From NCBI GenBank assembly GCA_965178125.1, contig OZ237743.1:1116001-1180000 (forward strand): 64,000 nt of DNA, written 5' to 3'. Of the stretch, positions 43,701 to 64,000 are shown piece by piece. Numbering within the stretch: the stretch's first letter is position 1; each line of letters opens with the position of its first letter. The notes beneath the pieces are model-generated. The model was not told where the DNA came from and searched no databases. It saw only the letters and a list, made by a program, of their open reading frames with translations. Position numbers and translations under genes: made by a program. The stretch comes from Bilabrum cf. latius (Eukaryota).

Positions 43701-44123
43701 GCTGTGCTGGACATGGATGTCATGAACGCGACGGTGGCGGCGACCGCGGCGCTGTGGGACTGGAACTGCACACGGGCCAACGTGTGGGGCTGGGACGCCG
43801 CCTGGCTCGCAAACGCGATGGCGAGGCTGGGCTGGGACCCGGTTGCAACCGCAGAAGTAGTGATGCTCCCGGCGAGACACAACGGGTTTGCGGAATACAA
43901 CGGGTACAACACGGGCGGCCACGGGGCTCTGGCGGCCTACCTGCCCGGGAACGGCGGACTGCTGCACTCGATTGCGCTGATGGCCAGTGGGAGTGGTGGA
44001 TTGCCCTGGGGCGGGGTGAGCGAGGGATTTCCTGGGTACGTGGGACGAGCGGAGGGGGATGGGGATGGGGATGGGGACAGCGAGATGGCTGCCTCCTGGG
44101 TGGGGGCGGGTGCTGCGCGGTGA
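40737..44123 (+). CDS. Secreted six-hairpin glycosidase (family often labelled GH65-like in bacteria and fungi); exons 40737-41042, 41137-43032, 43263-44123; 4 in-frame TAG codons
   Basis: Signal peptide; INREAVIQRNNP, VGNG, NPTRYDLG, ELERRVVLS[TAG]Y (family consensus VLSQY), WHGKSHLEM, LIWQQPH, DPTFELAY, WGWD, YLPGNGGLL. The 3' end could include a further exon. Confidence 0.85.
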
Positions 44124-44326
44124 TGTGCAGCCCGGGGGCCACTCGTCTGGCAAGGAAACATGGTTCTCATTGTTGCACTCGTTGTCTGAAGCCTCTCGAT
44201 CACCCCGCAGTGCCGTGCAGAACGTCGTGCGTGTGCAGTGCGCGGCGGGCATGTATGGTCCCCAAATCTCGTCACACACACCGAGTTGGCTGTTCGGGAT
44301 CTTTGCACTTTTCGCACGCATCCAGC

Positions 44327-45871
44327 ATGCGTCAAACTACACCACGGGCATTCTTTATCCTTGCGTCGCTAGTTTATGCTGTATACTCGTAGACAGTGTG
44401 CAACATAGAACAATTCGGCGCTAAACCTGCCCCTTACAACTCGACTGCATCCATTGCGAAAGCCATTGGTTCCTGCTGCGCGAGCCAGACCTCCGGAGCC
44501 ACAATCCTTGTTCCAAGCAATGTTTACCTGAGCGGTCCATAGCAGATCTAGAGATGCCCAGGTATCACGCTACAGCTGGACGGGCAGATCCAGGCACCGG
44601 AAGCTATCGGTGATTGGCCTTCTATTGACATCAAGCAGTTCCTCCTCATCGATGATTCTCCGGGAGCGACGATCCGTGGCAGCGGCTCCATCAACGGAAG
44701 CGGTTTTGCGTGGTGGTAGATCCGCCGCAAGACGCCCTCGCACCCCGCGCCGTACCTGGTGCTCGTCGAGCACAGCGACGGCGCGTCTGTGCGGGATGTG
44801 CGCTTCATCGACAGCCCAAAGTTCCACCTTGTGGTTGAAAAGAGCAGCAACATCACAATCGACGGCATCTCCGTGTCTGCGCCCTTCGACTCCCCGAACA
44901 CGGATGCCATCGACCTGGGCGAGGTGACCGGCGCTGTGGTGCAGAACGCCGTTATCGCCAACGGAGACGACGGAGTGGCCATCAAGGCGTTCACTACGAA
45001 CGTGCTGGTGCAGAACTGTACGTTCTACGGGGGCCACGGCACCAGCATCGGTTCCCTCGGAGAGACATCTGACGGAGACCACGTCAGCGACATCACCTTC
45101 CGCAACCTGACCTTCCACCAGTCCTGGATCGGCACCAGGATCAAGACGTGGCAGGGGCGCACGGGGTACGTCACCAACATCACGTTCCAAGACGTGGTGA
45201 TGCACGACGTCCAGGTGTCCATCCGGATCAACCAGTACTACTGCCCGCACTCGCAGCACCCGGGCCAGTGCAAGAACTCCACCACGAAGGGACTCAACGT
45301 GACGGGCGTGCTGTTCAAGGGGCTCTCTGGGACGCAGACGTCGGGGCACGCCGGGGAGCTGTTGTGCTCGGACCCGGCCCCCTGCCACGGCATCACTCTC
45401 GAGGACGTGCACATCGAACCGGTGAGAGAGGGATAGGCCAGGTGCTGGCTTTGAATTTTTATTTCTCTTCTTAATTCCAGCGGCAGCGGCCCAGCGGCCC
45501 AGTGGCGCATACCAACACGTGAGGCAGGGAGCGTGGTGTGCCTCATGTGTTGGTATGCGCCACTGGGCCGCTGCCTAAACTGCCTGTGCAGCACTCAACG
45601 CTGCCAGTGGTGCTTGGGGTAGCAACCGCAGCGTATCTCCACACTGTTGCGCGTCCAAGATTCCTTCCCTTCTCCTACATCGCAGTCCAAGTCAGGTGGT
45701 GAGAATGAGTTTGAGTGCTGGGAGGTACACGGCGAGGAGTCTGATGTGTTCCCTGACGCTTCCGGTTGCATGTGGGAGGGCGCTACCACGGCCGAGCAAA
45801 GGGAAAGAGGGAGGGAGGGGCCCCGCTGGCAGGAGTTCGACTTGGAGTCTGTGGATCAAGGATCCGATTGA
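44327..45871 (+). CDS. Secreted GH28 polygalacturonase; exons 44327-45421 and 45686-45871; 4 in-frame TAG codons, all in the 5' part
   Basis: Signal peptide MRQTTPRAFFILASLVYAVYS then [TAG]TVCNIEQFGA. All four GH28 motifs NTD, GDD, GHG, RIKT are present. The last exon supplies FECWEVHG...VFP; ends TGA. Confidence 0.95.
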
Positions 45872-46433
45872 AGAGGGTCCGTCGGGGCACGTCGGGGCAT
45901 GATGTACCTCTTTTTCAACGTTGATGGGGTGTTGAGTCACACCATTGGCTCACCGTGGCACTGCTGATGGGGGGCACTAGTTCCGGTTTACTGGGTTGAG
46001 TTTGCCAATCAGTGACAAGGTGTGCGTTACCTTAGTGACAGTCCTCAGATGATCTCTGGCGTGCAAAAACTCTGCAGGCGGCCCGACAGTGGGGAGATGA
46101 CGAGTGTGTAAAGATAGGCCTACTACAGAACGCGCTAGGCAGAAGTGAACCACGTTCGGAGCGCTTGAAACCGCGTGGCAGCGCAAAACACGACTTTGTG
46201 TGTACCAAAGTTTTGATTACAATCATCATGACACTAACACTATAGACACATCATCTGGATGGCATAAGTAGATCTTGTTGGCCCCATTTAGATCAACAAA
46301 GATATGCCGGCACGAACGGCAGTGGCGAGTCGCCTCTGCCGACTCTTAGGGGTACCGCCCATGGCCTGCCCGCATGGCCATTACCCTTGATCCGCAAAAC
46401 CGAATAAATCCAGGTACAGACAGTAGTGCAGAT

Positions 46434-49400
46434 TCAGTACCCGCCACCAGAAGCAGCACCCCCATGGCCAGCAGTAGATCGGTTAGCACCCTCGCCAGCG
46501 GCGGGACCACCAGCCCTGCCGATACCACTGCCAGCACCGCCGGCCTGCCGCGGCAATGCGGGTGGTACCACACCCACGGCTGCAGGCGGACCACGCTGCC
46601 CTAGCAGGTCGCACGGCTACAGTGGGGGTAGCGAATTGAATTCCAGAATTTGCGACGCATATGCCCTCTGAGTTTGCAACATGTCAAGAGTGAGCCGGTG
46701 CCAGGCCAGTCCTGAGCAAACGTGCAAGCTCACCGCCTCTGGACGCATGCCCAGTCCCCAAGGAAATCCGCACTGGGTGCAGAAGTTTGCGTCGCAGTCT
46801 TTGCACGTCGCGCAGCGGGCAAAAGCATGCATTGCAACGATCCTGGCACAGTCAGGGTTGGCGCAGACGACACATCTGCCGCTCTGTAGTATCCCTGAGC
46901 TGTCCACACTGTCAGCGAGAGACTTCAGCTGGCTGCGCAGCTTTAGCGGTGAGCACGACTAGGTGTGAAGCTTATCTTTACACCGCAGGCACCAGGGCTC
47001 CTGGTCGCATTCTGTTCTCATGCATCGCCCCTCCGTCGGGAGCAGCTGCCCATGGCCAGTGCCGCACTGCGCCAGGGGCGGAAGCACGGTGATGCGGCCG
47101 CACTGTTCACTGGGACACCGCACCACGCGCTGCAGGTGTGGCTTTAAAGACATTTGCCTCTGACTAGCTACAAATTGTTGCGAAAGCCCAGGCAAGTCTC
47201 TAGACCCAAGGTCCCACACCAACCCGGCTGGGAGATGCAGAGTGCCCTGCCCACTGTGCCTCAACAGCGTGTCATACACGAGATTGACAAGTCGCTCCTG
47301 CCCCATGCAGCCACGAAGCACATCGAGAGGAACTAGCGAATTGCCAAGAATTGGCACCGGGATGGCGACGCAAGCGTCTGTTTCAACATTCCTGGCTCTA
47401 GCTCGGAGCCACGAGGAGATGCATGTCATCCGGCTGGGCTAGGGCATGCTGCTGTCGCTTCTCCTCAGTGAGCCGATCGGTTCCGGCCCGTCTGGCTCCA
47501 CGAGCGATACAACCGGTAGATCGCTGTTGGCCAGAACTAGCAGGTCCCGTCTCAAAGCTGGCACATGTTCCCCCGATAGCTCGCACTGCACCATGCCGTG
47601 CCCCTCATCCGGTTCAGACTCGCGGTCATGCCCGCCACCGTTTGCTTTCGACTCGGCCATGGCCTTGAGCACCTCCTGCATCCTAGCCTTGGCATCAGCG
47701 CAGGTGTCCGGATCTAAGCCAAGGAATGCAAGGGTAAGATGTGGGCGATACCGAATATCCACTGCTAGGGACTTGCGTGGATCAGCTGGCAGCGGTTTGG
47801 GAGAAGAAGCAACACCATCGTCATCGTCATCGTCATTGTCATCGTCATCGTCGCCGTCGTCGTCACCAAAGGCATCATCTCTAACCTGGAAATCCATCTC
47901 AGATTCCGTCGGATCTGCTCCGCTGGCAGAGCCACTGCCGCTACTCGGCGGCGGGCTGGCATCTGCTGTTCTAGACGGATACACCAGATCAATGATCTGC
48001 TGCGGCTTCAGCCGGCACACTCTTTCGAGGCAGCTGCGCGCCGTCCAGCTCTCAAAGTCAGTGGCAGAGATCGTTTGTTGGTGCGGCGGGTCGTGCCGTC
48101 GCAGAAAATCAACCAGATCCTACACAAGCTTGTCCACTTTGCTGCTGTCTCCCACAACTCTCACATGGGTCGTGGGATCGTCGGTCAGCACGGATGCACC
48201 GCTGGCCTGGTCCGTGTGGGATCGGGCCGCTCGTGGAAACAAGATACCAAGTCCATGCGTGCTCGCGTACTACAGCAGTTCTTTCCGAATGAATGGCGAG
48301 AGCAGTTTTGCGCGGGCCAGGCCAGGCGTCAGGCTCGTGTCCCCGCGCGACACAAGGCTAGCCAAGTTGGCGCCTCCGAGGCACTAACGAACCAGTTTGG
48401 CGATTCGATTGCACTTCACAGCGTCGCCAGTGTGAATTGGGTAGCGCAGCGAATCGTGGTACCCGTTATCAGGCAGCTTGCAATGGAAGTAGTGCCATAC
48501 TTGTCCGTTAGAACCGTTCCTCTGCAAGGCTTCAGCAAGTCGGTCCGAATAAAGGAGAAATGGAAAACTTTCTCCGCTCAACATGCTCCGAAAGGCCTTT
48601 CTCTCCTGCTTCGGCACTTCAAACGTCTGCGTGTGTCGTACGTGCACGCCAACGCCAGATCCCGCTAGCTTGGTGCAAAATGTGAGGTCCTAGGCTAAGA
48701 GAGAGTCGCGAAGGCGATCTGCCATCTCGGGGGAAGGAGCTTCGATGCACATGGTGACTACCCCGGTGTCTGCGTGGGGAGGTGTCCACGATATGCCAGC
48801 GCACGTGCCCCACTAGCCTTCCACGTGGTGCGCAAGTTGCTTCGTGTCCTCTGCTACTAACCTTGCCGCGTCATGATCTTCGCGCCATGCCTTTCTTGCA
48901 GGAGGCACCAGTGGCTCCGCTGTTTTGGCAGGGCGAGATGGTTGTGGCTCGGTCGCTTTTGAAGATCTCAGAGCCGAATTCCTCCACTTTCCTGGATGAG
49001 ATGGCTTTTTGGTTGGTTTCGGGGATCTCCGATACATAGCTATACTCCGTTCGATGAAATGCCGAACCGTGCCTTCACTGATCACATCGAGCTGCTTCCT
49101 GGGGTCTGGTATGTGTGTTACGACGATCGCATTGGCGATGTTCCCGTGCCTCCGTACCATGTACTTACCGTACTCCTTCGCAGCCCAAATGCTAATTGTA
49201 AACGGTGTCTCGTGACTCTGAATGTACTCTGCCAAGTCCCAATCATCCGAATCGTGACAGAGCACTTCGAATTCAAATCTATTTGGAGAGCTCGAGCCTG
49301 ACCCACCCGCGCTGCTGCCTTGAAGAGATAGTAGGGTAGCTGGATACGGAGTTCCGATGTACCCCCTTAGGTGGATTCCTGGACTCCCCAAAATAATGCA

Positions 49401-52400
49401 ACTGACAAGGTGCTCGATTGCGTCGCCCGGTGGTAGCAGCTAGCGGAGCACTTGCTCAATCGCGAGCTTCATCTCGTCAGGGTGCATGTTGCGAGGGAAC
49501 CCGGAAACTTGGAGGCCATTCCAAAACCTAACGAATACCAACCGCTCGCTGATTCCTTCCACGTTGTGCCCTTCCTTTCTTGTTAGCTCCCGCATGATTG
49601 GGTAGCACGAGATTGCAGGAAAACATGCGCACTATCCGTCGTGCTCCTTGCCAAGCCACGAGACGACCACCTCGGATCGAATGCCTGCAGCTGGCCCTTC
49701 ATCGCTGTCACTCCCAGCCAAATGAACCAGCTGGGACTGAAGATCATTGCCTGGAAGCAGGGCATCACTCCGTTCTGTAACGTACTCGTGGAATGCCCGC
49801 GCTCCCTCCGCACTGGTGGCGGTGAACACTGCCCTGCAAGTGGGCTGAAATGGGCTGTCCAGCTCGCGGTAGCACGGCACAGTAGCCGCCATGGTACGAT
49901 CAGCCGCTGCCAGCTCTGAGGATACTCCCGGGTGTGAGGAACCCACGTGAAGTTGGAAGGCATTCAGGAGCTGCATCCATGGCACCGGCGCCGGCCTGGC
50001 CTGCTGTACGCTACCGGCTACAGGGCCAGCGGCCCTGGGGGCATCCCCTCCTTCCAATTCAGCAGGAATACTGGCATCTACTTGTTTCAATGCAGCGGTT
50101 GCTGCTGTCACAATTACCTGCAGGCAGCTTGAGGTAGGTCGATCAACCGCTGCTTCTGCTGCTACGGGACTAGCCCGTTCAGCTGGATCCGGCAGACTGC
50201 GAGGCACCAGCTGCAGAGGCCTCGCCCCTGACCCGACCAGCACCAGAGCAACAGACCGCATGCGAGAGCGAACAGGCAGCTCAACGACGTCAATGGCCTG
50301 CTGGACCATATTGAAGTGACTCTGAACAATTGCCGTCAGCGTGGAGACAGCAGTGAGGCGACAGACCTCAGGCACCCAGATCCGAAGCGTGCCCAGTGGC
50401 ACCACGTCCTAGCTGCTGCAGTTCCACGGCGTTTGCACGATCATCTTGTGCATTTCGCCCTCGATCTATGAATGCTTGGTCAATCTTGCAGTCTCTGAGT
50501 AGTCTTGACCCAACAGGCTCTGGTAAGTGGCTGTATCGAGTCCAGTCACCTGCACCTGGATCATTGAGACCCCCGGCGGGATCGAATCCTCTGGCATTGA
50601 CCGGATTCTTGCCAAGTCCGCCTTGCTGACGACAGTGGCATTGCACAGCATGTAGCCGCTGTTGTCTTGCACAGACTCGAACACCACCAGGTCGGGTCTG
50701 GCTGCGTCCTCCTTCAGAGCAACACACGACTTGGGGTGGATCTAGGCCATCCCGATCCACTTGCCGGCCCGTGTGAGGCTGTAGCCCGCACTGGCCTCGT
50801 TATTCGCGGCGGCAAGGTTCTCTGCCAGCGCCCATCCGATGAAACAGGCAACGGCGCGCTCCAGGTCATAGCCAGTCTTCGCTTCAAACGCAAACCCTAG
50901 GTTGAACGAGAACCCTGGCACTGCTGTGGCGCTCACTGCGTCCCGTACAGCATCCGGGATGTGGCTGGACTCTGCATCGCCAGCTCCACCCGCAGCCACA
51001 TCACTGTGTTCCACATTGGGCGTGAATGTTGGTGAAGATGCAGGCGTCAGACTTGCCAAACAAGCATCGAAGCGAGCTATTTCCGCAGCGCCCATGGCTC
51101 GCAGACTGACAGCGTCATTGCCGGCCCACTCCAGACCGTGCTCTGCTAGGCGAAGCACGGTGTTCTCGCAAACAGTCCTAGTCTGACTAAAGAGCCTGTG
51201 TATATCCGAGGCATGCTCATTCCCGAATACAGTGCTGAGCAGCAGACGCTGCCGCTCCATGCCAGCAGCCTCGTCCAGGCCCACCCGCTGCCACGCCACA
51301 AACACTCGCAGCAGGGTCACGAGATCTCCGCGGCTGGATGCAAGCACGGCCATGCACGGCCTCCGAATGTATTGGATGTGTCGACCTGCACCTTGCCGAA
51401 GAAGAGCCACCAGCCACAGGACTGGGCCACTCGCCACGCCCAGCTCGTCGTCGGTCTGCATCGCCTTCGCTGCCAAAGCGCCTACCCACGGCTCGACGTC
51501 CAGCATCCGGACCACGCGGCCATTGGCTGTGATCTTGCCCACCAGCGGCGCGACTTCGCCTCCAGTCATCGTGCGCCTCAGAGATTCACCCTATTCATTG
51601 TCATCCTCAGCCAGACCGAGGGCTTTCAGCGTGGTCACGGCGGCTCGCATGTCGTCTCCACGCGGCCGATCCACCCATTGGAACTGGTTCAGCGAGATGT
51701 TGGCCGCCATCACGTCAAGCGCCATGCGAGCCATGTTGCACCGCATCACTCCGGGAGGTCGCTGGGCCTGCATCACGTTGAATGTGTCCGTTGAGTAGAG
51801 CCGGATGCACTTGCCCGGGCAGGTCCTCCCGGTCCTGCCCTCCCGCTGGATGGCAGCTGCCTGGGAGATGCGCTCGAGGCGGCGCTGCGAGATGCGCAGG
51901 TCAGGATCATAGGCGTCTTGCCAGTCGTACCCGCAATCAATCACGCATGCGAGTCGCTGAATGGTCACACTGGACTCTGCATCTCGTGTTGAGAAGTAGA
52001 CAGCAAGTCCGTTGAGCTGGCCCCGCATGACAAGGTCATTGAGATCAGCGAGATCTTCGGCTTGAATGAGCTCCTTGCTTTCCACGCCACTTCTTTGTCC
52101 GTGCTGCTGCTCTATCATTGCATCGAACAGCCGCCGAGTACGACCCACTTCTGCCGTTCCCGGCAGGAACACCAGCACGCACGAGTGCTTCTTGGCGCGC
52201 AGTAGCCCACTGGCCTCCCTGAAAGCCACGAGGGCTGCTGCATGCACCAGCCTCGTAGACAAGTCGCTGCTGTCTGGCCGCAGCCGGTGCTTCAACGAAT
52301 TCAGAGCGCGCGGCTTCGCCCTCCAGCCCAGAATGGAGAACTGCTGCGAGCCTGCTTTGCACTCGGTTGAGAACGCCCGCACCAGTCGCGTGACAGAATT

Positions 52401-54832
52401 CAGGCTCTCGTACTGCGTGGTTGTCGCGAAACTACGACCGTTCACAGAGATAGTCAGGTCGCTTCCAAAGAAGCTCTGCAATTTGTCCGTATCTAGCGTG
52501 GCTGATGCCACCAACACGGCAGGCCTGTAGCGCATTGCCGCATCAGCCGCACCAGCGGCCGTGGCAGCGGCCTCGTCTACTGGCCGGACTTTCAGGGCCT
52601 CCTTGAGCATGCCCAGGAGTGCATCGCACTGCACTCCCCGCTCGTGCACCTCATCCACCATGATCAAGCCGAAGTCAGACATAGGCGGCAGGTCCCCATC
52701 GACGCCACCCTCCTCTCCTCCGCTGGCTAGCAGCTTGCCTGCCATGTGCAGGGCAGTGCCCTCCGTGGTAAACACGATGACGGTCTCCTCAGACACGCTG
52801 ACTGTAGTCTGACCCTTGCTCTCCAGCACCAGCCCCACCCTGCCACCGACCTTGCCCTCGCCCATCTCCCTTGCCACACGGTCTGCGAGCATGCGGGCGG
52901 CACTGGCGCTCGGCTCCGTGACCAGCATGCGATTGCCCCTGTGCCTCGACACGATGCCGTACTGCTGCAGGATCTGGGGGATCTGGGTGGACTTGCCACT
53001 GCCGGTGCGGCCCGTGACCATGGCCACTGGATTGATCTATCCACCGCTCGTCCTTGCGCACATGATCTTGGAGCACGCATCAACGACCTCAGCCTCCTGG
53101 TCGAAGATGCGGAGGCTTCGCACGAAAGACCGAATCCTCTCCTGCAGTCGTCGCACGAGAGCTGCGACCAGGTGTACCCGCGCGTCTCGCGTGGGCACAG
53201 GAGGAGATACTCCGGCCCTGAGTGCCGTTTGCCTCGCCCTGATTTGCTTCTCGGAGAGCCCGACCGGCACACGCGCCACGTAATCCCAGGCAATGGCAGC
53301 ATCGTGGACGTCAGCAACCATCCGCTCGAACAACAAGATGGAACGGTACTTGGACTCATCCAGGAGCGCATCGACGTTGCGCCGCATCTGGTCGGCGAAC
53401 ATAACTGCGTCGCTGGACAGATCCTCGCCGTTTGCAGACACTTCCAGCGCGCATCTTGCCTCTTGGGACTGCCTCTAAATTCGGCCCAGAACGTTGGTCT
53501 TGGCTGCGTCGATCTCTCTGGAGACCATCTGATTGACCAGCTCGACCGATCGCAAAGCCAATACGGCGCGCGACCCACCAATAGCGCTCTATGCGCCCTG
53601 TCCGTCAGCCTCAAGTGCTAGTTCATCAGCGCCTGCACCTGACGCTGGTGATCTAAACACGCGGGCACTAGCAGGCGACTCTACTGCGTCAGCATCGGGC
53701 TCCTCCCTTTCGCAGTCGCAGGCCCAAGCACCATCCACGTCCCCGCCCTCGTCAGCTGCAAGGATCTCAGCACGGATCGAGTCGATCTTCGATTCCATCA
53801 ATTCCAAGATTCGTTCGTATTGTTCAGCGTCTGCTGGCTTCTGGTCAGCCGAACGAGCCGCGTCCTCACACCAGGCAGAGACGCCAATCTCGCCGTAGCC
53901 AATAGCGCTGCCCTTAACTTGCCTGTCCCGACTAGCGACCGCTGCGGCCAAAAACTCAGACACATCACAAGTCGGAAGCAGCAGTGATTCCTTCAGACCG
54001 TTGCGTTCAGCCAGCGATAGATATCGGCTTCCCAAGCTGCCACGCGTAAGGTGAGCAAGCTCGATGTTGTGAGGAGGGGCGAGGTTCGGCTCTCCGATCA
54101 GTCGAATTTCCAGCCTACGGCCAAACTCATGAGTCCGCTTGATCATATCGAACCGATGATGGATAGAGTTCTTGTTGGCCACGACTTCGACGTACAGACC
54201 GCGGTGTAGAGCGTCCTCGACCACATTCGGAAAGGTTTGCTTGGTGTCTCGCAGGTATCCGTGTCTATTTCCATCGCCTGCGCGGTGAATATGCCTCATC
54301 ATAGTCCAAACGTATGGGATGATCACGAAGGATGCATTCTAATCGTGAAAATACCAGCGCTCTTACCTGTGCAAAGGATGAGAGTGTATCGAGTCATGGA
54401 CCTCGGATCTCGAGCTTTTCCTTGCTACACTTGCTCTCGTGCATGTGATATAGCTTGCTCTAGCATTCCACTCATTTTCTCGGCTTTAGTTCTTGCGTCG
54501 GCATCGACTCGGACCTCGTGCCTCGTAGATTGCCTGGTCTCGACCTCAACAGAAGGACAACAGGGTAGTTGCTCCAATTGGCGTTTCAGAATCGCTGCCC
54601 TTTCATCATTGGATTCTGAGCACTAAAAATGAAAGCACTTGCCGCCATCGCTTTCGAATATCTCTCTCCCACGGAGGACTTCGTCGACGAAGCGGCTGGG
54701 ATCCAACTGATAGCCTGCTTGTTGCACACCAATCGAGATGTTGGACCAATCCACGACCACTGCGACCCTCTACTTGGTCACATCATCATAATCTCCTACA
54801 GAAATTTGTCTTCCGAGCTTGCTGAACGACAT
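46434..54832 (-). CDS. NYN(PIN-like) nuclease - DEAH/RHA RNA helicase - RBR-type Cys-rich (IBR/RING) fusion protein (~2770 aa); 2 exons (54832-54367, 54277-46434); 20 in-frame TAG codons
   Basis: NYN: VAVVVDWSNISIG, TLILCTGDGN (across the intron), ALHRGLYVEVVA. Helicase: GRTGSGKST, DEVH, SAT, FLPG, QREGRTGR, [TAG]IHPKS. C-terminus: RCPSEQC...C..WCLRCKDKLH..SC and CANPDC...CATCKDCDANFCTQC. Eleven track ORFs share one frame; ends TGA. Confidence 0.88.
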
Positions 54833-54878
54833 ACTCGGACTACGTAATGAGTCTCTTGCCACGAGAAAGGTGGCAAAT

Positions 54879-54952
54879 ATACCAGAATATTTTGTACTAG
54901 TAGGGTAAACTTTTTGAATTTCAAAAGTTTACCCTACAAAATATTCTGGTAT
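54879..54952. repeat. AT-rich imperfect palindrome (arms of about 33 bp) in the divergent intergenic gap
   Basis: Left arm ATACCAGAATATTTTGTA(CTAGTA)GGGTAAACTTTTTGAA. Reverse complement of the right arm is ATACCAGAATATTTTGTAGGGTAAACTTTTGAA. Confidence 0.9.
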
Positions 54953-54999
54953 CGGCGTGTTCCCCTACTCCAGAGCTAACTGACAAGGTGGCTGTGGAG

Positions 55000-55593
55000 A
55001 TGACTCGCCGAGAGTCATCGCTGCAGTCACGTGGTCTTCAGGCAGAGTGGGTCTCCGGTGACTGGGCCAGTCGAACTTCAGAGGAGAAGGGCAAGATAAG
55101 GAAGGCATGGGCGGACCATGGCCTACGTCTTGAACCTCACCCACAACCTCTGGAGCAGGACAGGCGTGGAGTCGCTGCTGCTGAGCGAACCATTCCCAAG
55201 ATGCGCTTAGCAATTGCCCGCTCTAGCGCCTCTGTTGGATTGGTACGGCTTGCGACACTGGTGGTTGATGAGCTGAGTGTAAAGGTCAGAACGTTTCCGT
55301 CCTGGACTGCCTGCAGGTGGTGGACTGGGGCCTCGGTGCGAGGCTGGACTGCGAGCTCATCGGATGACCTGTATGCTGCAATGCGAGCTCAGGATCGGAG
55401 GGGACATCGTGTGGCTCGCCCTAGAGGGCTCATGCACACTCTTGAGAGGATCTGGGCGCGTGAGATGGCGACTTCGCTTCGCTGTGTCTTGCGTGAAAGG
55501 GAGTAGCTACGTTGTACATGGACGTCCCGCTGGTGGCGGATGGCATGTGTCGACGGTCCGGCTGTCCTTCCCCCCCGCTACGGTAATAAATAA
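55000..55593 (+). pseudogene. Probable 5' part of a host gene truncated by the viral insertion
   Basis: GC-rich ORF head-to-head with the helicase gene (167-bp gap, like other host pairs). It reads through TAG 55504 and stops at TAA about 20 nt after the GC-to-AT shift. No recognisable domain. Confidence 0.4.
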
Positions 55594-55776
55594 ATTTATT
55601 CCCTTCGGTTAAGGAAACAAGTTTCAATAATTACGTTCAGTCAGAGCTAAAGCTCTTCCCTCTCTCCATTCCTTTTCTCGCTAGTCGCTCCAAAAGTCAA
55701 GGTGAGCCTCTTCATACTGCTACTTCATATAACTGCTTTATCCTTCTAATTATAGAAAATCAATTATATATAAAAC

Positions 55777-55903
55777 TCTATACGATGACCATATCCACAA
55801 ATTGCGTATTAGTATATGTATTATTTAGCAAAACGTGGATGTAGCCCTCTTGTGAAGGTGTTATGGGACTCTAGCCATTTTCTAGCCAAAAGTTCCATCA
55901 CTT
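55777..55903 (+). repeat. ~125-bp diverged direct repeat, copy 1 (non-coding)
   Basis: Shared blocks ctatacgatg..atatccacaaattgcgtat, tagcaaaacgtggatgtag, cctcttgtgaaggtg.tatgggac and agttccatcacttta recur at 58602-58730. Confidence 0.9.
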
Positions 55904-56104
55904 TATGGGACTCCATTATTCAACCTTCTAAACTACCTTCATTATACCCCCTTATCCTCGCTTATACCTTCACAAATGGAACAAACGCGCTACAGCAACT
56001 TGCTACACTCGTCATCGCAATACCACAAGCGCCACAGTTCAATACACCCCGGAACGATGACGCTGTAGGCCAGCTGATCACTTCACCAGCCTAAAACAAT
56101 AGAT

Positions 56105-56798
56105 ATGGACCGCAAGATTGAGGTAAGAATCCACAGGATAGATAATCAACATATGGAAATTGCTTTGCTGACCGTATCTGTATCTATCGCACCGGTTTTG
56201 CTCGCCAACGCAGCTCTTCAAGCCCGACCAACGCAAGAAAACGGGAACGGAAGCGCTACTCACCTTCCAGGACACCGTACAAACCGAGAAGAACCCCAAG
56301 AAGCTTTTGAAAGCGCATTCAAGGCTACTAGGGGACATGCACCTCGTTGAGCAAACCGGGAAGTCGCTGGAGAAGGCAATTCGGGAGGCGGTCGGAGCAT
56401 TGGAACCGACAGGCGTCAACTCAAAGGCTCTACTCGCTGTTATCGCTTCAATATTCCCCAAGGGGAGTCTTGACGATACCGATGCTGACTTTGACCGGAT
56501 TAATGGCGTGCTGAAGATTCTACATCACGGCAGAGATTACGCGGAGACGAGGCAGACACAGGCGTTCTTGGCACAGAAAATGGCTATCCTCAAGCCATTT
56601 CTTCCAGCATATGACATCCCATCGCTCGTTGGTGATGTTTTGGAGAAGAACCAGAAGAGGAAGCGCCGCCAAGACTTCAACAAGTAGCTTCTTCTGGAAT
56701 CTGGCATCGCCGCACCAGCCAAGCGGTTTCGCGGCAATGAGAATCTCATCCAGGACTATCCCCGGACGGCGGGTTCTTAGCCCAAGATGGAGAAGTGA
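56105..56798 (+). CDS. Uncharacterised ~200-aa protein in the element's left arm, with a predicted 91-nt spliceosomal intron (56123-56213) and 2 TAG codons
   Basis: ATG GAC CGC AAG ATT GAG|GTAAGA...CTGAC...ACGCAG|CTC TTC AAG joins in frame to track ORF 56307-56687; ends TGA at 56796. Confidence 0.6.
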
Positions 56799-56981
56799 GA
56801 AGGTTGAACAACCTTTTTTATTATAAATTGTCGTGTTTGTTATTGGTAGGGACACGGCTATATTGGAGTGGCCACGCTGTCGTGTGTAGCAGGGTACGAA
56901 CCGTGCTTCCAGCATTGACACGGGTGGAATCCCGCATTGAAGAGCATTTCAATGTTTCATTTGTGGTCTCAGTCAATCCAA

Positions 56982-57449
56982 TCAATCCACACGCATCACC
57001 ACGTATCCATTTTGCTCGCTCGTGCTCCCGTCGTAGCTGTTTAGAAAATGTCCCAGCCCGTCCTCATCTTTACAGGCCTGAATGAGGTCGTCCCAGCGCC
57101 CCTAAGCCACTATAAATGACTTAAGAAGGGCGCTTAAAGCCTCGCTGTGGTTCGCGTCAGCGGTAGCGGTGCTTATGATATCGGCATCGCAAGGCAGGAA
57201 GCGCGAGAGGAACGCAGGAACGAAGGAAGCAAGCGTCTCTGTAGCGTGGTCGTCCAAACGTTTGTCTGCTTCTTCTTCGGTGATAATCTCATAGGTCTGG
57301 ATTTCCTCGCCTAGCTTCACCGTGGCAGTCTCGCCGTCAAAAGATTGAAGAACCCTGTCCCACTCCTCGCCCACTGCTCCAATGTCTTCAATACCAGCAA
57401 TAAGCGCCTTCATTACTTCATCATTAACATCTGTAGAAACCCCGGCCAT
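56982..57449 (-). CDS. Acidic ~155-aa phage-like hypothetical protein; one TAG at 57104-57102
   Basis: YEIITEEEAD...FVPAFL...[TAG]GRWDDLIQACKDEDGLGHFLNSYDG resembles, from memory, an uncharacterised viral family with a DG-x-GHFL-x-x-YDG motif. That motif lies downstream of the TAG. Ends TGA. Confidence 0.7.
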
Positions 57450-57761
57450 TGTTTTATGTGTTTTATGTGTGGTCCAGATAAATTTTGGCGTAGCACAGGT
57501 TCCGAAGATGAAGATGAGAAGGTGGTAGACGATAGCCGATTCCAGTGGTAGCAGTGAGAAGTTCCAGCACGAGGAAGTGATGAAAATGTAGGGCAGGAGG
57601 GTATAAACTGACGGATGGAACCGCAAAGGAAGGAGAATTGGATTGAATAATTGAAGCCAGACCCATAACCCTAGCCTAAAGGCTAGGGATAACCCCCACA
57701 TAACCCCCCCACCTCTAAGCGTTTTTTTAAAACTCAAAAATTATAACTTAGTATTATAGAT

Positions 57762-58532
57762 ATGAACTTTAATAATTATGTCATTGAAAATCCCGTCCTA
57801 ATGAAGCAGATTTATAAGGCTACAGACCATATTACAGATAGTACGCAAAAAATTTTAGAGACCATTACTACGTATGTAGATTTAGGTGGAAGGTTTTCCA
57901 CGTCTAAATTAATTAATAAAAATATAGTTAGTGATATTAAAGAGAAAAAAGCCGTCAAAAAACCCAAGAAAGAAGAGAAACAGAAGATACAACACGATAA
58001 TAACGACCAGCTTGAAATTAACCAAACATACATTCTAGATAAATTTAATGACTATAAACCACAGAATAATAAAATTTATAATGATGTAGATGATTTACAA
58101 CCGCCAGAATTAATTAGATAGACCGCAATAGATGAAAAATTTACCGGTATGGAGCCTGACAGTGAAAGTGAAATAAACAGCGTTAGTACCGAACAAGACT
58201 AGATAGAAGCAGAAACTGATGATGAAATGATACCTGAGGAAGAGAAAAAAATAATAGGTGATTTAATTAAATTAGAGAATCAGGATTATAGGTATAAAGT
58301 GTCCGTAAATGGAAATGATGTATTTTTTGGTGAAATTAATTTACCCGATGTAGAGGCTCTTAAGAAATAGTTTAGCCCTCGTAAATTACAAATTATGATT
58401 TGTAAAATTAAAAGAAATTTTAATATTAATAATAGCGATGATATAAACAGCCCTGAGTTTTGGAATAGCCGTGTATATTTGACCCTTGATGTGAAGGCCG
58501 AACACGAAAAACTACAAGATATCTATAATTAA
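57762..58532 (+). CDS. Viral hypothetical protein (256 aa) with acidic central region; 3 TAG codons
   Basis: No TAA/TGA from ATG 57762 to TAA 58530 despite very AT-rich DNA. Confidence 0.75.
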
Positions 58533-58574
58533 AAGCCCCTACAACTTAATAAACGGGCTAGAATTTAATAAAAT

Positions 58575-58601
58575 ATTTTAATATAACCGCTATATTAAAA
58601 T
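58575..58601. terminator. Perfect 11-bp AT-rich hairpin downstream of the 57762-58532 gene (candidate 3'-end signal)
   Basis: ATTTTAATATA-ACCGC-TATATTAAAAT. Confidence 0.45.
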
Positions 58602-58730
58602 CTATACGATGGCTATATCCACAAATTGCGTATAATTATATAGTATTTCTAGCAAAACGTGGATGTAGGGCCTCTTGTGAAGGTGGTATGGGACCTTTAG
58701 ATAATTTTTAAAAATAGTTCCATCACTTTA
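58602..58730 (+). repeat. ~125-bp diverged direct repeat, copy 2 (upstream of the primase-helicase)
   Basis: Matches the blocks at 55777-55903. Confidence 0.9.
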
Positions 58731-58895
58731 GAAGGTGTTAAAATACACCATTCATATCACAATCTATTTTTTAGGGCTAAATGGCAAAAATCACCTTTTA
58801 CCTTCATTAATTATTATAGCCCCTTTAAGCCCTCTATAATTAAATATGGCGTTTAAAATAGTTTAAAAATATATTTCTAATAATATATATAGAAA

Positions 58896-61673
58896 ATGAA
58901 TAATAAAAACCTCGTTAGTTTCCCCATCAAGCACAATCAAAAAATACCTGATGTTAAAAGCTGGCGATATCTCACCAAACCCGAGCCTAAACGATTTAAT
59001 AATCAGAATATGGCTATTATCACCGGAGAAATTAATAATATAACCGTGTTTGATATTGATTCATATAAATGGAGCGATAAGAAGGAGCATTTATTCATCA
59101 AGAAATTTTCAGATGACTTTGTGAAGCGGTTCAACACATTCACGGTTAAAACAGCGGGTGGAGGGTATCATCTATATTTTAAATATGATTAGAATATATT
59201 AACTACCACCAATAGAGATATTGACGTTGATATTAGGAATGATGGGGCTTATGTAGTGGCACCACCAAGTGGCATAAATGGGTCAAAATACGAAGTTATT
59301 AATAATGTAGAAATAAAAAAATGTCCTAAGGAGCTTTATAAATTTTATGAAAAGTATATTATTAAATCCTCTAAGAAATCCAACGTAAAAGGGGCGAGTA
59401 AAAGGATATCAAAAATTGATAATCAAGATGTGAATAACTGTATGATGAAATTCATTTTAAATGGTAAAGACTGGTCAATTATATTAAATAGACTAGATAA
59501 GAAATATTTAAATAATTATAGTGATTGGTATAAAGCAACCCTAGCGAGTAAATATTTAGGATTTAAGAAGGAGTGGTAGGAGTGGAGCAAGAAGGGCAAT
59601 AAATACGACTACCACAAAAATAACAAGGTGTGGAACTCTATCCATTATTTTGATAAGTTAAAAACCTTTAATTTAGTTAATTCAATAATTTAGAATGATA
59701 AAAGTTTAAAGGCATTTGTGAAAGATAAGTATATTTCAAAGTGTTATTATCGTCCTTATGACGAGAATATTAACGGGTATACAGAAATTAATAAACCTAA
59801 ATTAGATGATATAGAGAAGCCCGAACGATTTTTTAAATATGAATATAATTATGTGGTAAAAAGTGATACAGGAACAGGTAAAACAACAGCATTTAAGAAA
59901 TACATTAAACAGGTTCAAACGCCGTTCTTATCCATTGTATCCCGTGTATGTTTAGGCACAGAGCAATACGAGAGCTTTTTAAATGAAGATATTAAATGTG
60001 AGTTCTACCAGAATAAAACTTTTGATTTTGGATAGTCTCTTATTATTACGCCGGAAAGTATCCCCCAAATTGTGAATTATGATTTTTCTAAATACATCGT
60101 ATTTTTGGATGAATTCAATAGCATTATAGAGCATATATTAAGTTCTACCACGATGAATAATAATAGGGTTCTTGTATTATTTATTATTTTAAAAATGATA
60201 AGGACGTGTAAATAGTTTATTGCTGTAGATGCTGACATATCCCAGATAGCGATGAAATTTTTAAAATGTGCTGGAGTAGAATTTAGCTTCATTAAGAATA
60301 AATATAAGCATTTTAAGGACGTAAAAGTATATTTTGAAAAAGACCAATAGAAATTTTACGATAAATTAAAAAGTGAAGATAAATTTATACTGGCGTGTGA
60401 TAGCAAGAAGAACGCAGATACATTTTATAAAATGTTATGTAAAGATGGTATAGAGGACGTTAAATTAATTACTAGTGATTTATTACCTGATGAGGATGTG
60501 AGCTTAGATAAATATGATAAAATTATATTTAGTCCTAAAGTCATTTACGGATTAGATAGTGTAATGGAGCGCCCAGTGTATGGATTATATAAAGGAAAAA
60601 CGATTCTACCGCCGTAGATGATGTAGCAACTGGCAAGATGTAGAAATCCCGAATATATGAATATATATTTTGAAGATGTAAAATCCATTTATCCAAGATA
60701 TGAGAATTTAAAGGAGGTATAGACGACCTTAAATATGGAAATTAACGCATAGACAGATTTATATACTAAATTAGAAAAATACGAAAAAAGGATAATGTAG
60801 GAGAATGATATTGACATTGATATTTTTGAGGGAGAAGATGATGAAGAGATAGCCCATAAAGCAATGATAGAGGCATCATATAAGGTTTATTTACCACTCA
60901 AGAAATTATATAATTTCAAATGTGATACATACGAAACAAATAAATATATTCATTTATAGCTTATTCTTAAAAACAGGGGTGCCGATGTATAGGTGGATAA
61001 GGAATTACCACAACGAATGAATAAATAGCAGATGAAAGAGGCGACAATGGAGATACTACAAGAAAAGATTGATTCATTTGATGTAGAGAACGACCATATA
61101 AAAAGAAGAATTGAAATTTTAGGGCTACCAGAGACAGCCATAACGGAGGATATTAAAATGTTATTAATTGATAATTACAAATTAATGAATTATTTTAATT
61201 ATGCTAATTTCAAGAGAAAAGATAAATATAAACTAATGACAGAATTAAAGGATAGAAAGGATTTTAAGGATGAGAAAGCAAAAAGTACAAAGAATAAAAT
61301 AATCATATTGTAGGAGATGTTATAGACGCTTAAATTGAATAAATTTGATTTAAGTTATACACGTAAAAATGAGAAATCCATTAAATATATAGAAATGGGT
61401 AAAAGATATGTAGAAGTAAGCGGGGCGAGATTATAGAAGCCAATAGAAACCGATAGTGAATTACACGGGGCAATAGTAAAATTATATAAGTAGTTATTTG
61501 GAAATATTAAAACCTCTTGGAGTATGGGAAATAAAAAGGATAAAAAGGATAGAGAATTAAGAATTAAATTCACCAAGGAGAAAGAATTATTTGATGAAGT
61601 TTATAAATATTAGTATCCCGAAATGAAGGACGTATACAAGGAATCCAACGAACGATTAGATTAGAATATTTAA
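58896..61673 (+). CDS. Viral primase-helicase (925 aa): Prim-Pol (AEP) + PriCT-2 + origin-binding-protein(UL9)-like SF2 helicase; 20 in-frame TAG codons
   Basis: ITGEINNITVFDID, TVKTAGGGYHLYFKY, DIRNDGAYVVAPPS; YSDWYKA...W[TAG]EWSK; KSDTGTGKT, LDEFNS, VDADIS, PP[TAG]MM[TAG]QLARCR. No TAA/TGA until TAA 61671. Confidence 0.93.
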
Positions 61674-61731
61674 TACCTTTTTTATGTGTTTAAAATAACT
61701 TAAACATTATATATTTATATAATATATAGTG

Positions 61732-62034
61732 ATGAGCGATATTTAGAGTTCAAGCAATACATAGGAACAACCAAAAATTAATTATATGTAGGAATATTAC
61801 AAAACAAACAAAGACAAATGGAATAAAAAATATTTAGCTAGAGGAAATGAAAAAGTTAAATGCGATGTGTGTGATTGTTATTATAGAAGGAAGGACAGAA
61901 CGAGACACGAACGAACGAAGAAACACCAAAAAAATCTCAAAGAACCAAAAAAGGATATACTAGAGGAATATATCAAGAAACTTAATCAAACCCTGCTTAA
62001 TAGCGGGATTAAACCACCGGAGATATCAATTTAA
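61732..62034 (+). CDS. Small viral C2H2-type zinc-finger protein (100 aa); 3 TAG codons; absent from the ORF track
   Basis: YM[TAG]EYYKTNKDK...EKVKCDVCDCYYRRKDRTRHERTKKH; ends TAA. Confidence 0.85.
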
Positions 62035-62038
62035 ATTT

Positions 62039-62073
62039 ATCTATTTATTTATTTTTTTTATAAATAAAAAGAT
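62039..62073. terminator. 14-bp hairpin (1 mismatch) filling the gap between convergent viral genes
   Basis: ATCTATTTATTTAT-T7-ATAAATAAAAAGAT between the stops at 62034 and 62077. Confidence 0.55.
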
Positions 62074-62076
62074 TTT

Positions 62077-62598
62077 TCAACCTTTAATAACCATCCAATT
62101 AGCCGACCAATCATTAGAGGAATTACCACCCGTTAAATGAATCGTAAATCCATCGGTTCCTGCTACTACGTGGGAAAATTCAACCGGCTCACTGGCGGGG
62201 GTGATTGTAGTAATAAAAACCAAATCACTAGAAGTCATACCCGGAACACTAGCAAATTCAGTAGCACCTCCACCACTCCAATTTACCCTTCCTTTATGCG
62301 CTACGGTGTTATTTGCTACTACTTCACCTTTTACGGTTAAATCACATTCGTGACCGTCTTCATCAAAACTCATAACTAAACCAGCAGATGCGGTATTGGC
62401 ACCGAATCGTAAAGCTTGACCCGAAGTGATGTAAGAAATACCCTTACTGTCAAGATGTAATCCTGCGTTGCTAACAACTACATCACTACTATTCACAACA
62501 GCATTTACATATAGACCACTACTATCTAATCTACCAGTTGCGACATTCTTACATTGAATAGATATATCATTAGGTTGCGATAATCTTGCTAAGCTCAT
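62077..62598 (-). CDS. Beta-rich, Gly/Ser/Thr-rich fibre-like/minor virion protein (173 aa); no TAG
   Basis: Intact ORF. The C-terminus SVPGMTSSDLVFIT...GTDGFTIHLT...ANWMVIKG resembles tail-fibre tip modules. Function inferred. Confidence 0.6.
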   Translation of the reverse strand: MSLARLSQPNDISIQCKNVATGRLDSSGLYVNAVVNSSDVVVSNAGLHLDSKGISYITSGQALRFGANTASAGLVMSFDEDGHECDLTVKGEVVANNTVAHKGRVNWSGGGATEFASVPGMTSSDLVFITTITPASEPVEFSHVVAGTDGFTIHLTGGNSSNDWSANWMVIKG

Positions 62599-62651
62599 TT
62601 TTTGTATATATAAATAAGAGAAAAACTAAAACTTATATCAAACCTATAATA

Positions 62652-63359
62652 TTAAACTTTCATTAATTTTTTAGCTCTATCTACGGCGTCCATAAAGCTA
62701 TCTTTTAATGTTGGTTCATTCCATAATACAAACCTAGACCAAAAAGCGGGGGATTTATAGTCTTTAAAGTCTTCATTTATTGAATGTCTTTTAATATAAT
62801 TTTTCTTTTTACGGTTTGCTTCCTTCTCTCCATCTTTATTATAATATTGTATAAAGTCCATATAAGGGGTACCATCATTCTTAATTCCACCAAAATGAAC
62901 AGTAAACAGAATATTATTACCTTGAACTACTTTAATCATATATTTTTTATTTGATTTAGTTGATTTATATAAATTAAAAACTGGTTTAGGTCTAAATGAT
63001 TTCACGTGTCCGTTATTAAATTTTTCCTTCATTGCTTCCTCTATTTCTTCCGTGTCTAATTCTCCAAAGGTTAAAGGGGTCTCTTTATTTATTCTTTTAG
63101 TGGGTCTATATATATCTCCTTTTTCCTAATATCCCTTTTCTCCCTTCTAATTCTTCCAATCCTCTAATTTCCACCTTCTTAAATTTTTCTATGCTTCATT
63201 TAATTTAATTTTATCATATGTCCCCCCTAGTTTTTTATAACGAGCAAAATATGCTAATGAACGATAAGCTGAAGGCTTTTTATACGTTCTATTTACTTTC
63301 TCAACTGCCTGACGCCATAATTTAGGACTATTAACATAATTAGGTATATTATCATTCAT
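62652..63359 (-). CDS. Two-domain viral protein (235 aa): conserved giant-virus/PLV-type basic domain fused to a Tlr6F-like domain; 3 TAG codons
   Basis: N-half YKKPSAYRS...YKKLGGTY, LRRWKLEDWKN[TAG]KGEKGY, YRPTKRINKETPLTFGEL. C-half KKYM...VHFG...YMDF...YIKRH...SPAFWSRFVLW (Tlr6F pattern). Ends TAA. Confidence 0.85.
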
Positions 63360-63367
63360 CTATATAA

Positions 63368-63526
63368 TTAATAAAATGATAATTTTTTAATTGCGTGAGC
63401 CGTTTTCTTTCTATATTCTTCATAGAGTCTTTTATTATTTGGATTCTTCATTAATTTATTTTTTACCTTCTTTAATGCCTTCTTAATAGCATACTAAACA
63501 AAGATATTACTAATAATATTAATCAT
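63368..63526 (-). CDS. Small basic viral ORF (52 aa); one TAG
   Basis: MINIISNIFV[TAG]YAIKKALKKVKNK...KKLSFY-TAA. Fills the gap between neighbours and has TATATA just upstream of the ATG. Confidence 0.45.
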
Positions 63527-63553
63527 ATATTATATAATTAATAAATATTTAAT

Positions 63554-64000
63554 TCAAAGCATTAAACCGCCTTTTTTTCCTTTCCTTGATATAATTTCTT
63601 CTTTTTCATTTACGACCATTAAATCATTCTATCCGTGGATAATTAATTTCTATCCTTCTTCATTAATCTATTCTTTTTTATATTCACCTAATTCTTTACC
63701 TACTTTAAAATTTAATCTTTTGTTAAATGTGATACTGTCGGTGTGAATTCGTATAATATGTTTAGCGTTGTTCTTATTCACTTTCTTCATCAATCGTTGT
63801 CTTCCATATGCCAGAATAAAAGGTTTCAATTTTCCCCAGCTATATTTAAAGGGTACTTTATGTTTCAAATGATAAATAAATTCTCCGTCATTATCCATTT
63901 CTACACGGTCAATATCAAATTTATCTATATTTATTTTTTTATCGTCTTTTGATGTAATTGTCTTTTTAGAGGAACTACATAATTTACCCCATAATGAATT
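63554..64000 (-). CDS. C-terminal part of a family-B (probably protein-primed-type) DNA polymerase; 5' part outside the window; 3 TAG codons
   Basis: NSLWGKL (motif B, NSxYG-like), KPFILAYGR, IRIHTDS (motif C variant), GKELGEYKKE; ends TGA. Confidence 0.8.

Follow-up and report, generated by a model that had tools for sequence, protein, structure and literature searches.

The DNA analyzed here is a 64,000-nt stretch of Bilabrum cf. latius contig OZ237743.1 (positions 1,116,001–1,180,000; hereafter the window), and its subject is gene A, which occupies positions 54832..46434 on the minus strand. From the letters alone, gene A had been read as a fusion of an NYN nuclease, a DEAH helicase, and a RING-between-RING (RBR) ubiquitin ligase in one frame of ~2,770 amino acids (aa), suggestive of RNA sensing, cleavage, and ubiquitylation by a single chain (the original prediction). 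The combination of NYN, DEAH, and RBR-derived modules is upheld by an NYN fold, by ATPase motifs, and by an IBR/Rcat fold, and A belongs to a family of five paralogs (A–E) that differ in which modules they have lost; the ligase module of A itself is predicted to be inactive.

Gene structure, genetic code, and expression of gene A

The window comes from a eukaryote with a GC content of ~60%, whose long frames, that of gene A included, stay open only if TAG encodes an amino acid. Within the gene A interval, translation table 15 gives two minus-strand open reading frames (ORFs), at 54832..54323 and 54302..46434, which differ in frame. These are joined by an 89-nt GT-AG intron (54366..54278), giving a spliced protein of 2,769 aa with a TGA stop. 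The predicted size was therefore correct, but the single genomic frame was not, because the intron interrupts it; likewise, the TGDGN motif exists only in the spliced product and is created by splicing. The remaining predicted motifs (VVDWSNI, STRDAESSVTI, the RRM-like segment LQVSGFPRNMHPDEM, and the C-terminal Cys clusters) were all found in gene A. In paralogs B, C, and D, an intron is predicted at the equivalent site, with lengths of 116, 90, and 122 nt, respectively.

One contig of run X1 lacks exactly the 89 intron nucleotides of gene A, and another skips the GT-AG intron of the neighboring GH28 gene; contigs of runs X2 and X5 retain both introns. Because X1 skips introns that X2 and X5 keep, X1 was treated as RNA-like, although its label is a guess and its nature was deduced from these intron joints. 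X1 depth is present in 29 of 30 bins across window positions 44000–58000. The unbroken frame argues for a single gene A transcript, with no X1 contig covering the whole gene. Two separate genes at this locus were ruled out, as the intron between the two ORFs is spliced out in X1.

Across 397 paralog comparisons of TAG positions, 14.9% have Gln on the opposite side, a share that is 19.6% for CAA/CAG and 3.6% for the remaining codons, and an ortholog fragment from another isolate (P0123) ends precisely at a TAG position of A. Such comparisons support a nuclear code in which TAG specifies Gln, with TGA and TAA as stops. The host appears to resemble a Cafeteria-type flagellate in its GC content and elements. 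The papers found on UAG reassignment do not mention bicosoecids, and no tRNA genes were found within the 64-kb window.

An NYN fold at the N terminus

Only unspliced exon pieces of the NYN domain were analyzed, with the modeled exon 1 comprising two-thirds of the domain. Folded together with the matching exons of three paralogs, exon 1 gave a model with a predicted local distance difference test score (pLDDT) of 79. Among 48,161 chains, the best structural match was the LabA-type protein VPA0982 (PDB: 2qip; Z 8.9, root-mean-square deviation [rmsd] 3.5, 106 aligned), followed by the NYN domain of MARF1 (PDB: 5yaa; Z 6.8, rmsd 3.1, 96 aligned) and, in third place, a designed protein (Z 6.0). The presence of a PIN/NYN fold had been named beforehand as a point on which the original prediction could fail; it was borne out, with NYN structures as the top two matches.

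In the MARF1 alignment, D28/N31 of A fall at D178/N181 and T155/D157 at S270/D272 (mapped by range ends only), positions that are named as catalytic or conserved in MARF1 (PMC6217404). D110 lies near the start of a long helix, as does MARF1 D246. D28, N31, D110, T155, and D157 are invariant across paralogs A–D, as is E106. Pfam NYN (PF01936) had no match in the exon pieces of A and reached E = 0.13 on exon 1 of B, a genome search with PF01936 found only one, unrelated, locus, and neither the NYN halves nor the RBR region of A had a significant sequence match in the PDB. The model supports an NYN (PIN-like alpha/beta) fold at the N terminus of A, and this domain probably cuts single-stranded RNA.

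An ATPase core that has lost translocation motifs

The core of A is of the DEAH/RHA type (best PDB sequence hit, E = 1.2e-39), with Walker A, DExH, SAT, and motif VI all present. The basic pair of motif Ia is lost in 5/5 paralogs, none of which keeps two basic residues, whereas it is kept in 5/5 other host DEAH proteins and in 117/118 database hits with a recognizable motif Ia; this comparison covered 5 of ~10 other host DEAH loci and a database set of 125 proteins. The hook-turn RF is absent from all five paralogs and present in four of the five host control DEAH proteins. Motif V has Arg in place of Asn (TR for TN) throughout the family, in line with the claim of a DExH core with an atypical motif V.

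In Prp43, loss of the hook-turn RF abolished unwinding, but ATPase activity and RNA binding were retained (PMC5262380). Because of this precedent, and because the two RNA-binding threonines named for Prp43 in the same paper are conserved in A, we infer that the core of A is an RNA-binding ATPase that would translocate poorly.

A degenerate RBR module

The C-terminal Cys clusters were correctly recognized insofar as they form an IBR and an Rcat fold; the catalytic Cys is missing, and RING1 is degenerate. The RING1 position holds one Cys in A and D and two in B and E, compared with the full pattern in three host control RBRs, and in A this segment was modeled with pLDDT <50, a result compatible with either the presence or the absence of a U-box-like fold. 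The Cys/His pattern of the IBR is present in A, B, D, and E, with pLDDT of 60–80 across part of the domain, and 165 bp of the IBR region of A are 98% identical to paralog B. The Rcat of A is identical to that of B at just 26/61 positions and nevertheless keeps all eight zinc ligands, which suggests that the fold is retained. It scored above the Pfam IBR cut-off in the genome search, and the Rcat model matched the parkin IBR with an rmsd of 1.4–1.6 over 45 residues, at low Z. The family Rcat profile aligns with the ARIH1 structures 1wd2 and 2m9y, the latter of which has Ser at the catalytic Cys.

The codon for Ala2642 (46820-46818), at the catalytic position, is GCC in A and TGC in B, D, and E, where the Cys is kept; the catalytic loop accordingly reads Phe-Ala-Arg-Cys in A and Gly-Cys-Asn-His in the other three. 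The X1, X2, and X5 contigs contain zero alternative letters at this site. A frameshift or assembly error was ruled out by the agreement of the three runs. Ubiquitin transfer needs the conserved Rcat Cys (PMC3940038). Because of the Ala at this position and the degenerate RING1, A is not classed as an RBR ligase, contrary to the original prediction, and the proposed union of sensing, cleavage, and ubiquitylation in one chain fails for A on the same grounds. A is instead predicted to be a pseudo-RBR with an inactive ligase module, the catalytic Cys being absent from its usual place. A parkin BRcat-Rcat fragment without RING1 was reported to be active (PMC3940038), so the ligase modules of B, D, and E may be active by analogy. 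The three-activity model is possible for B and D, judging from their NYN motifs and Rcat Cys-x-His.

The linker and middle region

The linker between the NYN domain and the ATPase core is variable (113/336 positions identical between A and B). Beyond the core, OB_NTP_bind matched below cut-off (Table 1), and HA2 had no Pfam match in A. The RRM-like segment of the original prediction is present in the middle region and similar across all five paralogs, but it has no Pfam RRM match. Genome searches with the DEAH11 KH models PF24471 and PF24641 found nothing at the five family loci. From its sequence, the middle region (~1,000 aa) is likely to be an array of RRM and KH domains.

Table 1. Features of gene A, its upstream neighbors, and the family loci (window coordinates unless a contig is given)
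Feature	Position	Strand	Remarks
Exon 1, aa 1-155	54367..54832	-	N-terminal two-thirds of NYN (D28, N31, E106, D110); X1 contig starts at 54831
Intron, phase 1, GT-AG, 89 nt	54278..54366	-	Splits TGD motif; skipped in X1, kept in X2/X5
Exon 2, aa 156-2769, TGA stop	46434..54277	-	
Rest of NYN, aa 156-218	54090..54277	-	Carries D157 and N159, with the final helix and strand; motif shared by A–D
Variable linker, probably helical, aa 219-570	53034..54089	-	No Pfam match
DEAH/RHA-type RecA1-RecA2 core, ~aa 571-990	51774..53033	-	Motifs I, II, III, VI intact
OB_NTP_bind-like, aa 1302-1379	50607..50840	-	PF07717 E=4e-4, below cut-off; follows region at winged-helix (WH)/HA2 position
Middle region, aa 1386-2380	47604..50588	-	Blocks conserved across five paralogs
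RRM-like segment, within middle region	~49514-49470	-	
Weak KH_DEAH11_2nd match	48212-48096	-	PF24641 E=0.037, below cut-off
Degenerate RING1-position segment	47336..47585	-	First Cys only; hhalign to three host RING1s: P=0.02, 17 columns
IBR (BRcat) domain	46944..47120	-	Cys/His pattern
Rcat-fold domain	46689..46883	-	Eight zinc ligands; Ala2642 at catalytic Cys position, Cys2644 at His position
Host repeat, left 612 bp	54958..55569	.	Starts 126 bp upstream of gene A ATG
Endogenous virophage, left part	55570..64000	.	Neighbor, separate from gene A
Paralog B	C9:1208431-1218248	+	3233 aa
Paralog C	C9:1230109-1238211	-	2670 aa, without IBR/Rcat
Paralog D	C22		Coding sequence split by virophage
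Paralog E	C23, ~431500-440284	+	NYN apparently degenerate; exon structure predicted, not confirmed by reads

A family of five diverging paralogs

Five genome loci match the helicase core of A far better than other DEAH proteins do, and these are counted as the family (A–E), the number of paralogs being among the checks that had been proposed. The five paralogs formed one long-branched group with support of 100/100 in a 22-row tree, which combined them with 5 host proteins and 12 sequences hand-picked from 120 database hits and contained no DEAH11/12. No other DEAH match adjoins any of the 18 IBR matches, leaving the family as the sole helicase-plus-IBR genes seen in the genome. The best reading is that it branched off the known helicase-RBR subfamily within this lineage and gained an NYN RNase, a descent deduced from architecture.

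Between A and B there are 15 runs of 12–47 identical codons, and third positions elsewhere are ~40% identical. The runs lie in the helicase motifs, the OB region, the middle region, and the IBR; the Rcat of A lies outside them. This mosaic looks like patchy gene conversion. Paralog B is also present in X1, as 12/12 listed X1 variants on A match B. In addition, 292 bp of the middle region of B have recently been duplicated internally, at 98% identity (G000:C9:1214895-1215549). Ortholog fragments from other isolates correspond to A (P0123, 79% identity), B (P0121, 94%), and D (P0124/P0125, 73–88%).

Proposed mechanism and alternatives

We propose that the NYN domain cuts single-stranded RNA, that the DEAH core uses ATP to clamp RNA and not to unwind it, that the ligase of A is inactive, and that the family serves in RNA defense. 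This combined reading is tentative, with a probability of about 0.4. The RRM/KH array of the middle region would select an RNA, on which the DEAH core would close upon ATP binding, and the NYN domain would then cleave it by means of metal ions held by D28, D110, D157, and perhaps E106. In B, D, and E, the IBR-Rcat could pass on ubiquitin, either marking the complex or turning the effector over; in A it would be a zinc-bound scaffold, and A would likely work solely as an RNA-destroying protein. The targets would be foreign or selfish RNAs from viruses or mobile elements. A surveillance or antiviral role is plausible because of the expansion, fast divergence, A/B mosaicism, and module loss of the family in a virus-rich genome, and by analogy with ZAP-KHNYN-TRIM25, ZNFX1, and the control of retrotransposons by MARF1.

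Several observations weigh against this proposal. The top structural Z score of the NYN model (8.9) barely exceeds the noise range of the comparison tool (7–8), and Foldseek with the exon-1 model gave no match at E ≤ 0.001. The fourth NYN acid is uncertain: N159 (after GD) and S72 stand where relatives carry Asp, S72 ending strand 2, where MARF1 has D215. The RRM/KH reading depends on one sub-threshold Pfam match in A, the PF24641 match, which has no counterpart in the four paralogs. In Prp43, the arginines of motif Ia and the hook-turn contact RNA through main-chain amides (PMC5262380), and proteins of this family that lack them might therefore still bind RNA or move along it. Finally, fast divergence is also compatible with relaxed selection.

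A more far-reaching version, which we consider doubtful, is that an ancient helicase-RBR gene gave rise to a protist immune-receptor family that acts against giant viruses or virophages as a single-chain version of ZAP-KHNYN-TRIM25, with an ATP-gated, non-unwinding clamp and two outputs, the NYN domain and a RING1-independent IBR-Rcat. Each paralog would have shed one output or kept both (the RNase alone in A and C, the ligase alone in E, the two together in B and D), and giant viruses or virophages would in turn have knocked out one copy.

The family might instead turn over host RNA or control its quality, much like MARF1 acting on oocyte mRNA, with no special antiviral role. The NYN domain of MARF1 degrades host transcripts (PMC6217404), A and B are both found in the RNA-like X1 with no infection on record, and orthologs of A, B, and D are present in other isolates. 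Yet a five-fold expansion, the loss of modules, isolate identities of 73–88%, and a tolerated knock-out of D are ill-suited to housekeeping, and according to the literature many helicase RBRs can be dispensed with (PMC2904391); this alternative is unlikely, if worth serious consideration.

An abortive-infection switch is less probable still. Here the ATPase would sense a nucleotide or viral protein and free the NYN domain for unselective RNA destruction that kills or arrests the infected cell; in B and D, self-ubiquitylation would hold the protein at low levels. ATPase motifs are kept and translocation motifs lost in 5/5 paralogs, RNF213 is reported to be activated by ATP binding (PMC12075652), and ZNFX1 turnover is governed by its own ubiquitin chains (bioRxiv 10.1101/2025.09.05.674436), all of which would suit such a switch. 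However, selection of RNA is suggested by the conserved RNA-binding threonines and by the probable array of RRM and KH domains, and A is transcribed despite having no predicted brake.

It is improbable that A is still an E3 ubiquitin ligase with Cys2644, two residues past the usual site, as a shifted nucleophile, in which case the three-activity model would hold after all. The catalytic loop of A does offer a free Cys, the parkin fragment described above is active without RING1, and the His is not universal, since the host RBR L034 has Arg at that position. Against this, Gly-Cys is found at a fixed position in 6/6 other aligned Rcat loops (B, D, E, L033, L034, and L038), whereas A has Phe-Ala there and its entire loop is replaced.

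It is similarly improbable that A is a redundant duplicate of B decaying under relaxed selection. The lost catalytic Cys and RING1, the repeat and virophage tolerated just upstream of A, and the broken state of D in the assembly would fit decay, but the 2,769 codons of A are stop-free even though third positions compared with B look saturated. Moreover, the zinc ligands and NYN acids are kept, the transcript is spliced, and the ortholog P0123 is open across 263 aa at 79% identity.

Little is known of protein-based antiviral defense in free-living flagellates. Under the proposed clamp-and-nuclease reading, natural RNase-only, ligase-only, and both-output versions allow direct tests of which output matters. 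The family also lets one ask if a DEAH core that does not unwind can serve as a switch, and if ubiquitin can be taken up by an IBR-Rcat lacking a zinc-bound RING1. Should it have no role in defense, it still offers a new architecture and a natural pseudo-RBR for a subfamily whose function is poorly known.

Neighboring genes and virophages

Convergent with gene A is a GH28 polygalacturonase-like gene (window 43466-45795, plus strand; Pfam E = 1.5e-68), whose 264-nt intron is spliced in X1 and X6. On the other side, between a virophage and paralog B, lies a 2,255-codon frame (G000:C9:1199416-1206183, minus strand; L012/L013) that contains 3'-5' exonuclease and YbaK/tRNA-editing domains and, by eye, a Mut7-C-like end.

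This virophage spans 27.2 kb (G000:C9:1171570-1198782), has 424-bp terminal inverted repeats (TIRs) and a 5-bp target duplication, and encodes capsid, minor capsid, rve integrase, and primase-helicase. Its TIR begins at 55570, 738 bp from the ATG of A, inside a multi-copy host repeat with 22 matches, 15 of them near full length. The next 336 bp of the repeat were found beyond the virophage, and both halves are contiguous in 3/3 other copies checked. Full copies of the repeat are at least 2 kb long and 95–99% identical, and occur in X1 and X6 contigs; the copy upstream of gene A is shortened to ~950 bp. An AT-rich near-perfect inverted repeat (window 54875-54952) separates the ATG of A from the host repeat, and short motifs akin to it flank the repeat copies and are seen again past the virophage. 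A virophage origin of gene A was ruled out by its host-like GC content (~59%), its intron, and its paralogs elsewhere.

The coding sequence of D is interrupted by another virophage, which is 25.7 kb long, contains an Ngaro-like retroelement, and shares no blastn match of ≥40 bp with the element near A. P0124 and P0125 read continuously over the insertion site, which argues that D is a single gene split by the insertion. The retroelement (G000:C22:356155-364713; L024, L025) is GC-rich, has reverse transcriptase and RNase H matches below cut-off, and contains 630-bp and 87-bp direct repeats. At L018:6376-8096, X2 depth is ~76 compared with 43 across the rest of the 3' half of D, perhaps because of a second partial junction copy.

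Two capsid searches found at least 55 distinct virophage capsid loci of several types in the genome. The two common types have 8–14 in-frame TAG codons, so they use the host code; five loci (C1, C21, C36, C40, and C9:385442) have no stops in the match and may stem from standard-code hosts. Some virophages appear to be nested (C4 near 1.25 Mb and C12 near 0.30 Mb). Given the neighbor of A, the probability that one of the remaining four loci is also hit is 0.045 genome-wide, or 0.08 when the density of C22 is used. With this many virophage loci, chance insertion that a dispensable family tolerates is sufficient and most likely explains the element next to A, as the original prediction had allowed in calling the adjacency a possible coincidence, even though an unrelated virophage splits D.

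That virophages target the family loci, or that the knock-out was selected because the family restricts them, is very improbable: two of the five loci have an insertion in the gene or <1 kb away, by two element types, and D was evidently one gene later split, but against this stand the probabilities given above for a second hit; moreover, the element of A sits in a repeat outside the gene, and insertions in Cafeteria show no sequence specificity and often fall in exons (15 sites in genes; PMC8547959).

Distribution and comparison with known systems

No paper combining NYN, RBR, and helicase was found in the literature, subscription journals lying outside the search. Among the best 120 of 516 homologs of the helicase region, most were HrpA; none had NYN or IBR Pfam marks, and DEAH11/12 were not among them. 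The RBR region of D matched 0/44 candidates. A profile of NYN exon 1 searched against 1.84 billion representatives gave two hits, a B-ortholog fragment and a repeat artefact; the exon-2 profile also gave two, both of them orthologs from other isolates. Two metagenome scans yielded no match. Such empty searches are no proof of absence, because TAG-encoded Gln and introns break gene calls in the collections.

Arabidopsis DEAH11 and DEAH12, which we take to be examples of the helicase ("Plant I") RBR subfamily, offer the closest comparison in domain order. As in that subfamily, the DEAH core lies N-terminal to an RBR-type C terminus (degenerate in A); A has a weak DEAH11-type KH match, below cut-off, between the two. 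Unlike Plant I RBRs, the family adds an N-terminal NYN domain, has a RING1 without zinc ligands, and has lost translocation motifs; A has also lost the catalytic Cys, the proteins are ~2,700–3,200 aa long, and there are five paralogs. Helicase-RBR fusions are ancient, occurring in unikonts as well as bikonts, and have frequently been lost (Marin, 2010; PMC2904391).

With MARF1 and VPA0982, A shares the fold, D-x-x-N after strand 1, T-G-D after strand 4, an Asp at the start of a long helix, and, probably, RNA-binding modules in the same chain. It differs from them in having Asn after GD, no clear equivalent of D215, and a fusion to an ATPase and an RBR remnant. MARF1 controls retrotransposons (PMC6217404). 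A shares motifs I, II, III, and VI with Prp43, Prp16, Prp2, and DHX15, along with the two RNA-binding threonines, but has no basic pair in motif Ia and no hook-turn RF, and the Asn of motif V is replaced by Arg in all five paralogs.

In functional terms the family resembles ZAP-KHNYN-TRIM25, in which RNA recognition, an NYN-class nuclease, and an E3 act jointly against viral RNA (PMC10747524). Those are three separate proteins with other RNA-binding and E3 folds, so the likeness is one of function, with homology considered only as a PIN/NYN superfamily link. ZNFX1 likewise joins a helicase and an E3 in one RNA-gated chain (bioRxiv 10.1101/2025.09.05.674436); it differs in its superfamily 1 helicase and its E3 module, and the abstract of the preprint describes no nuclease domain, whereas in the family studied here a putative NYN nuclease is carried on the same chain.

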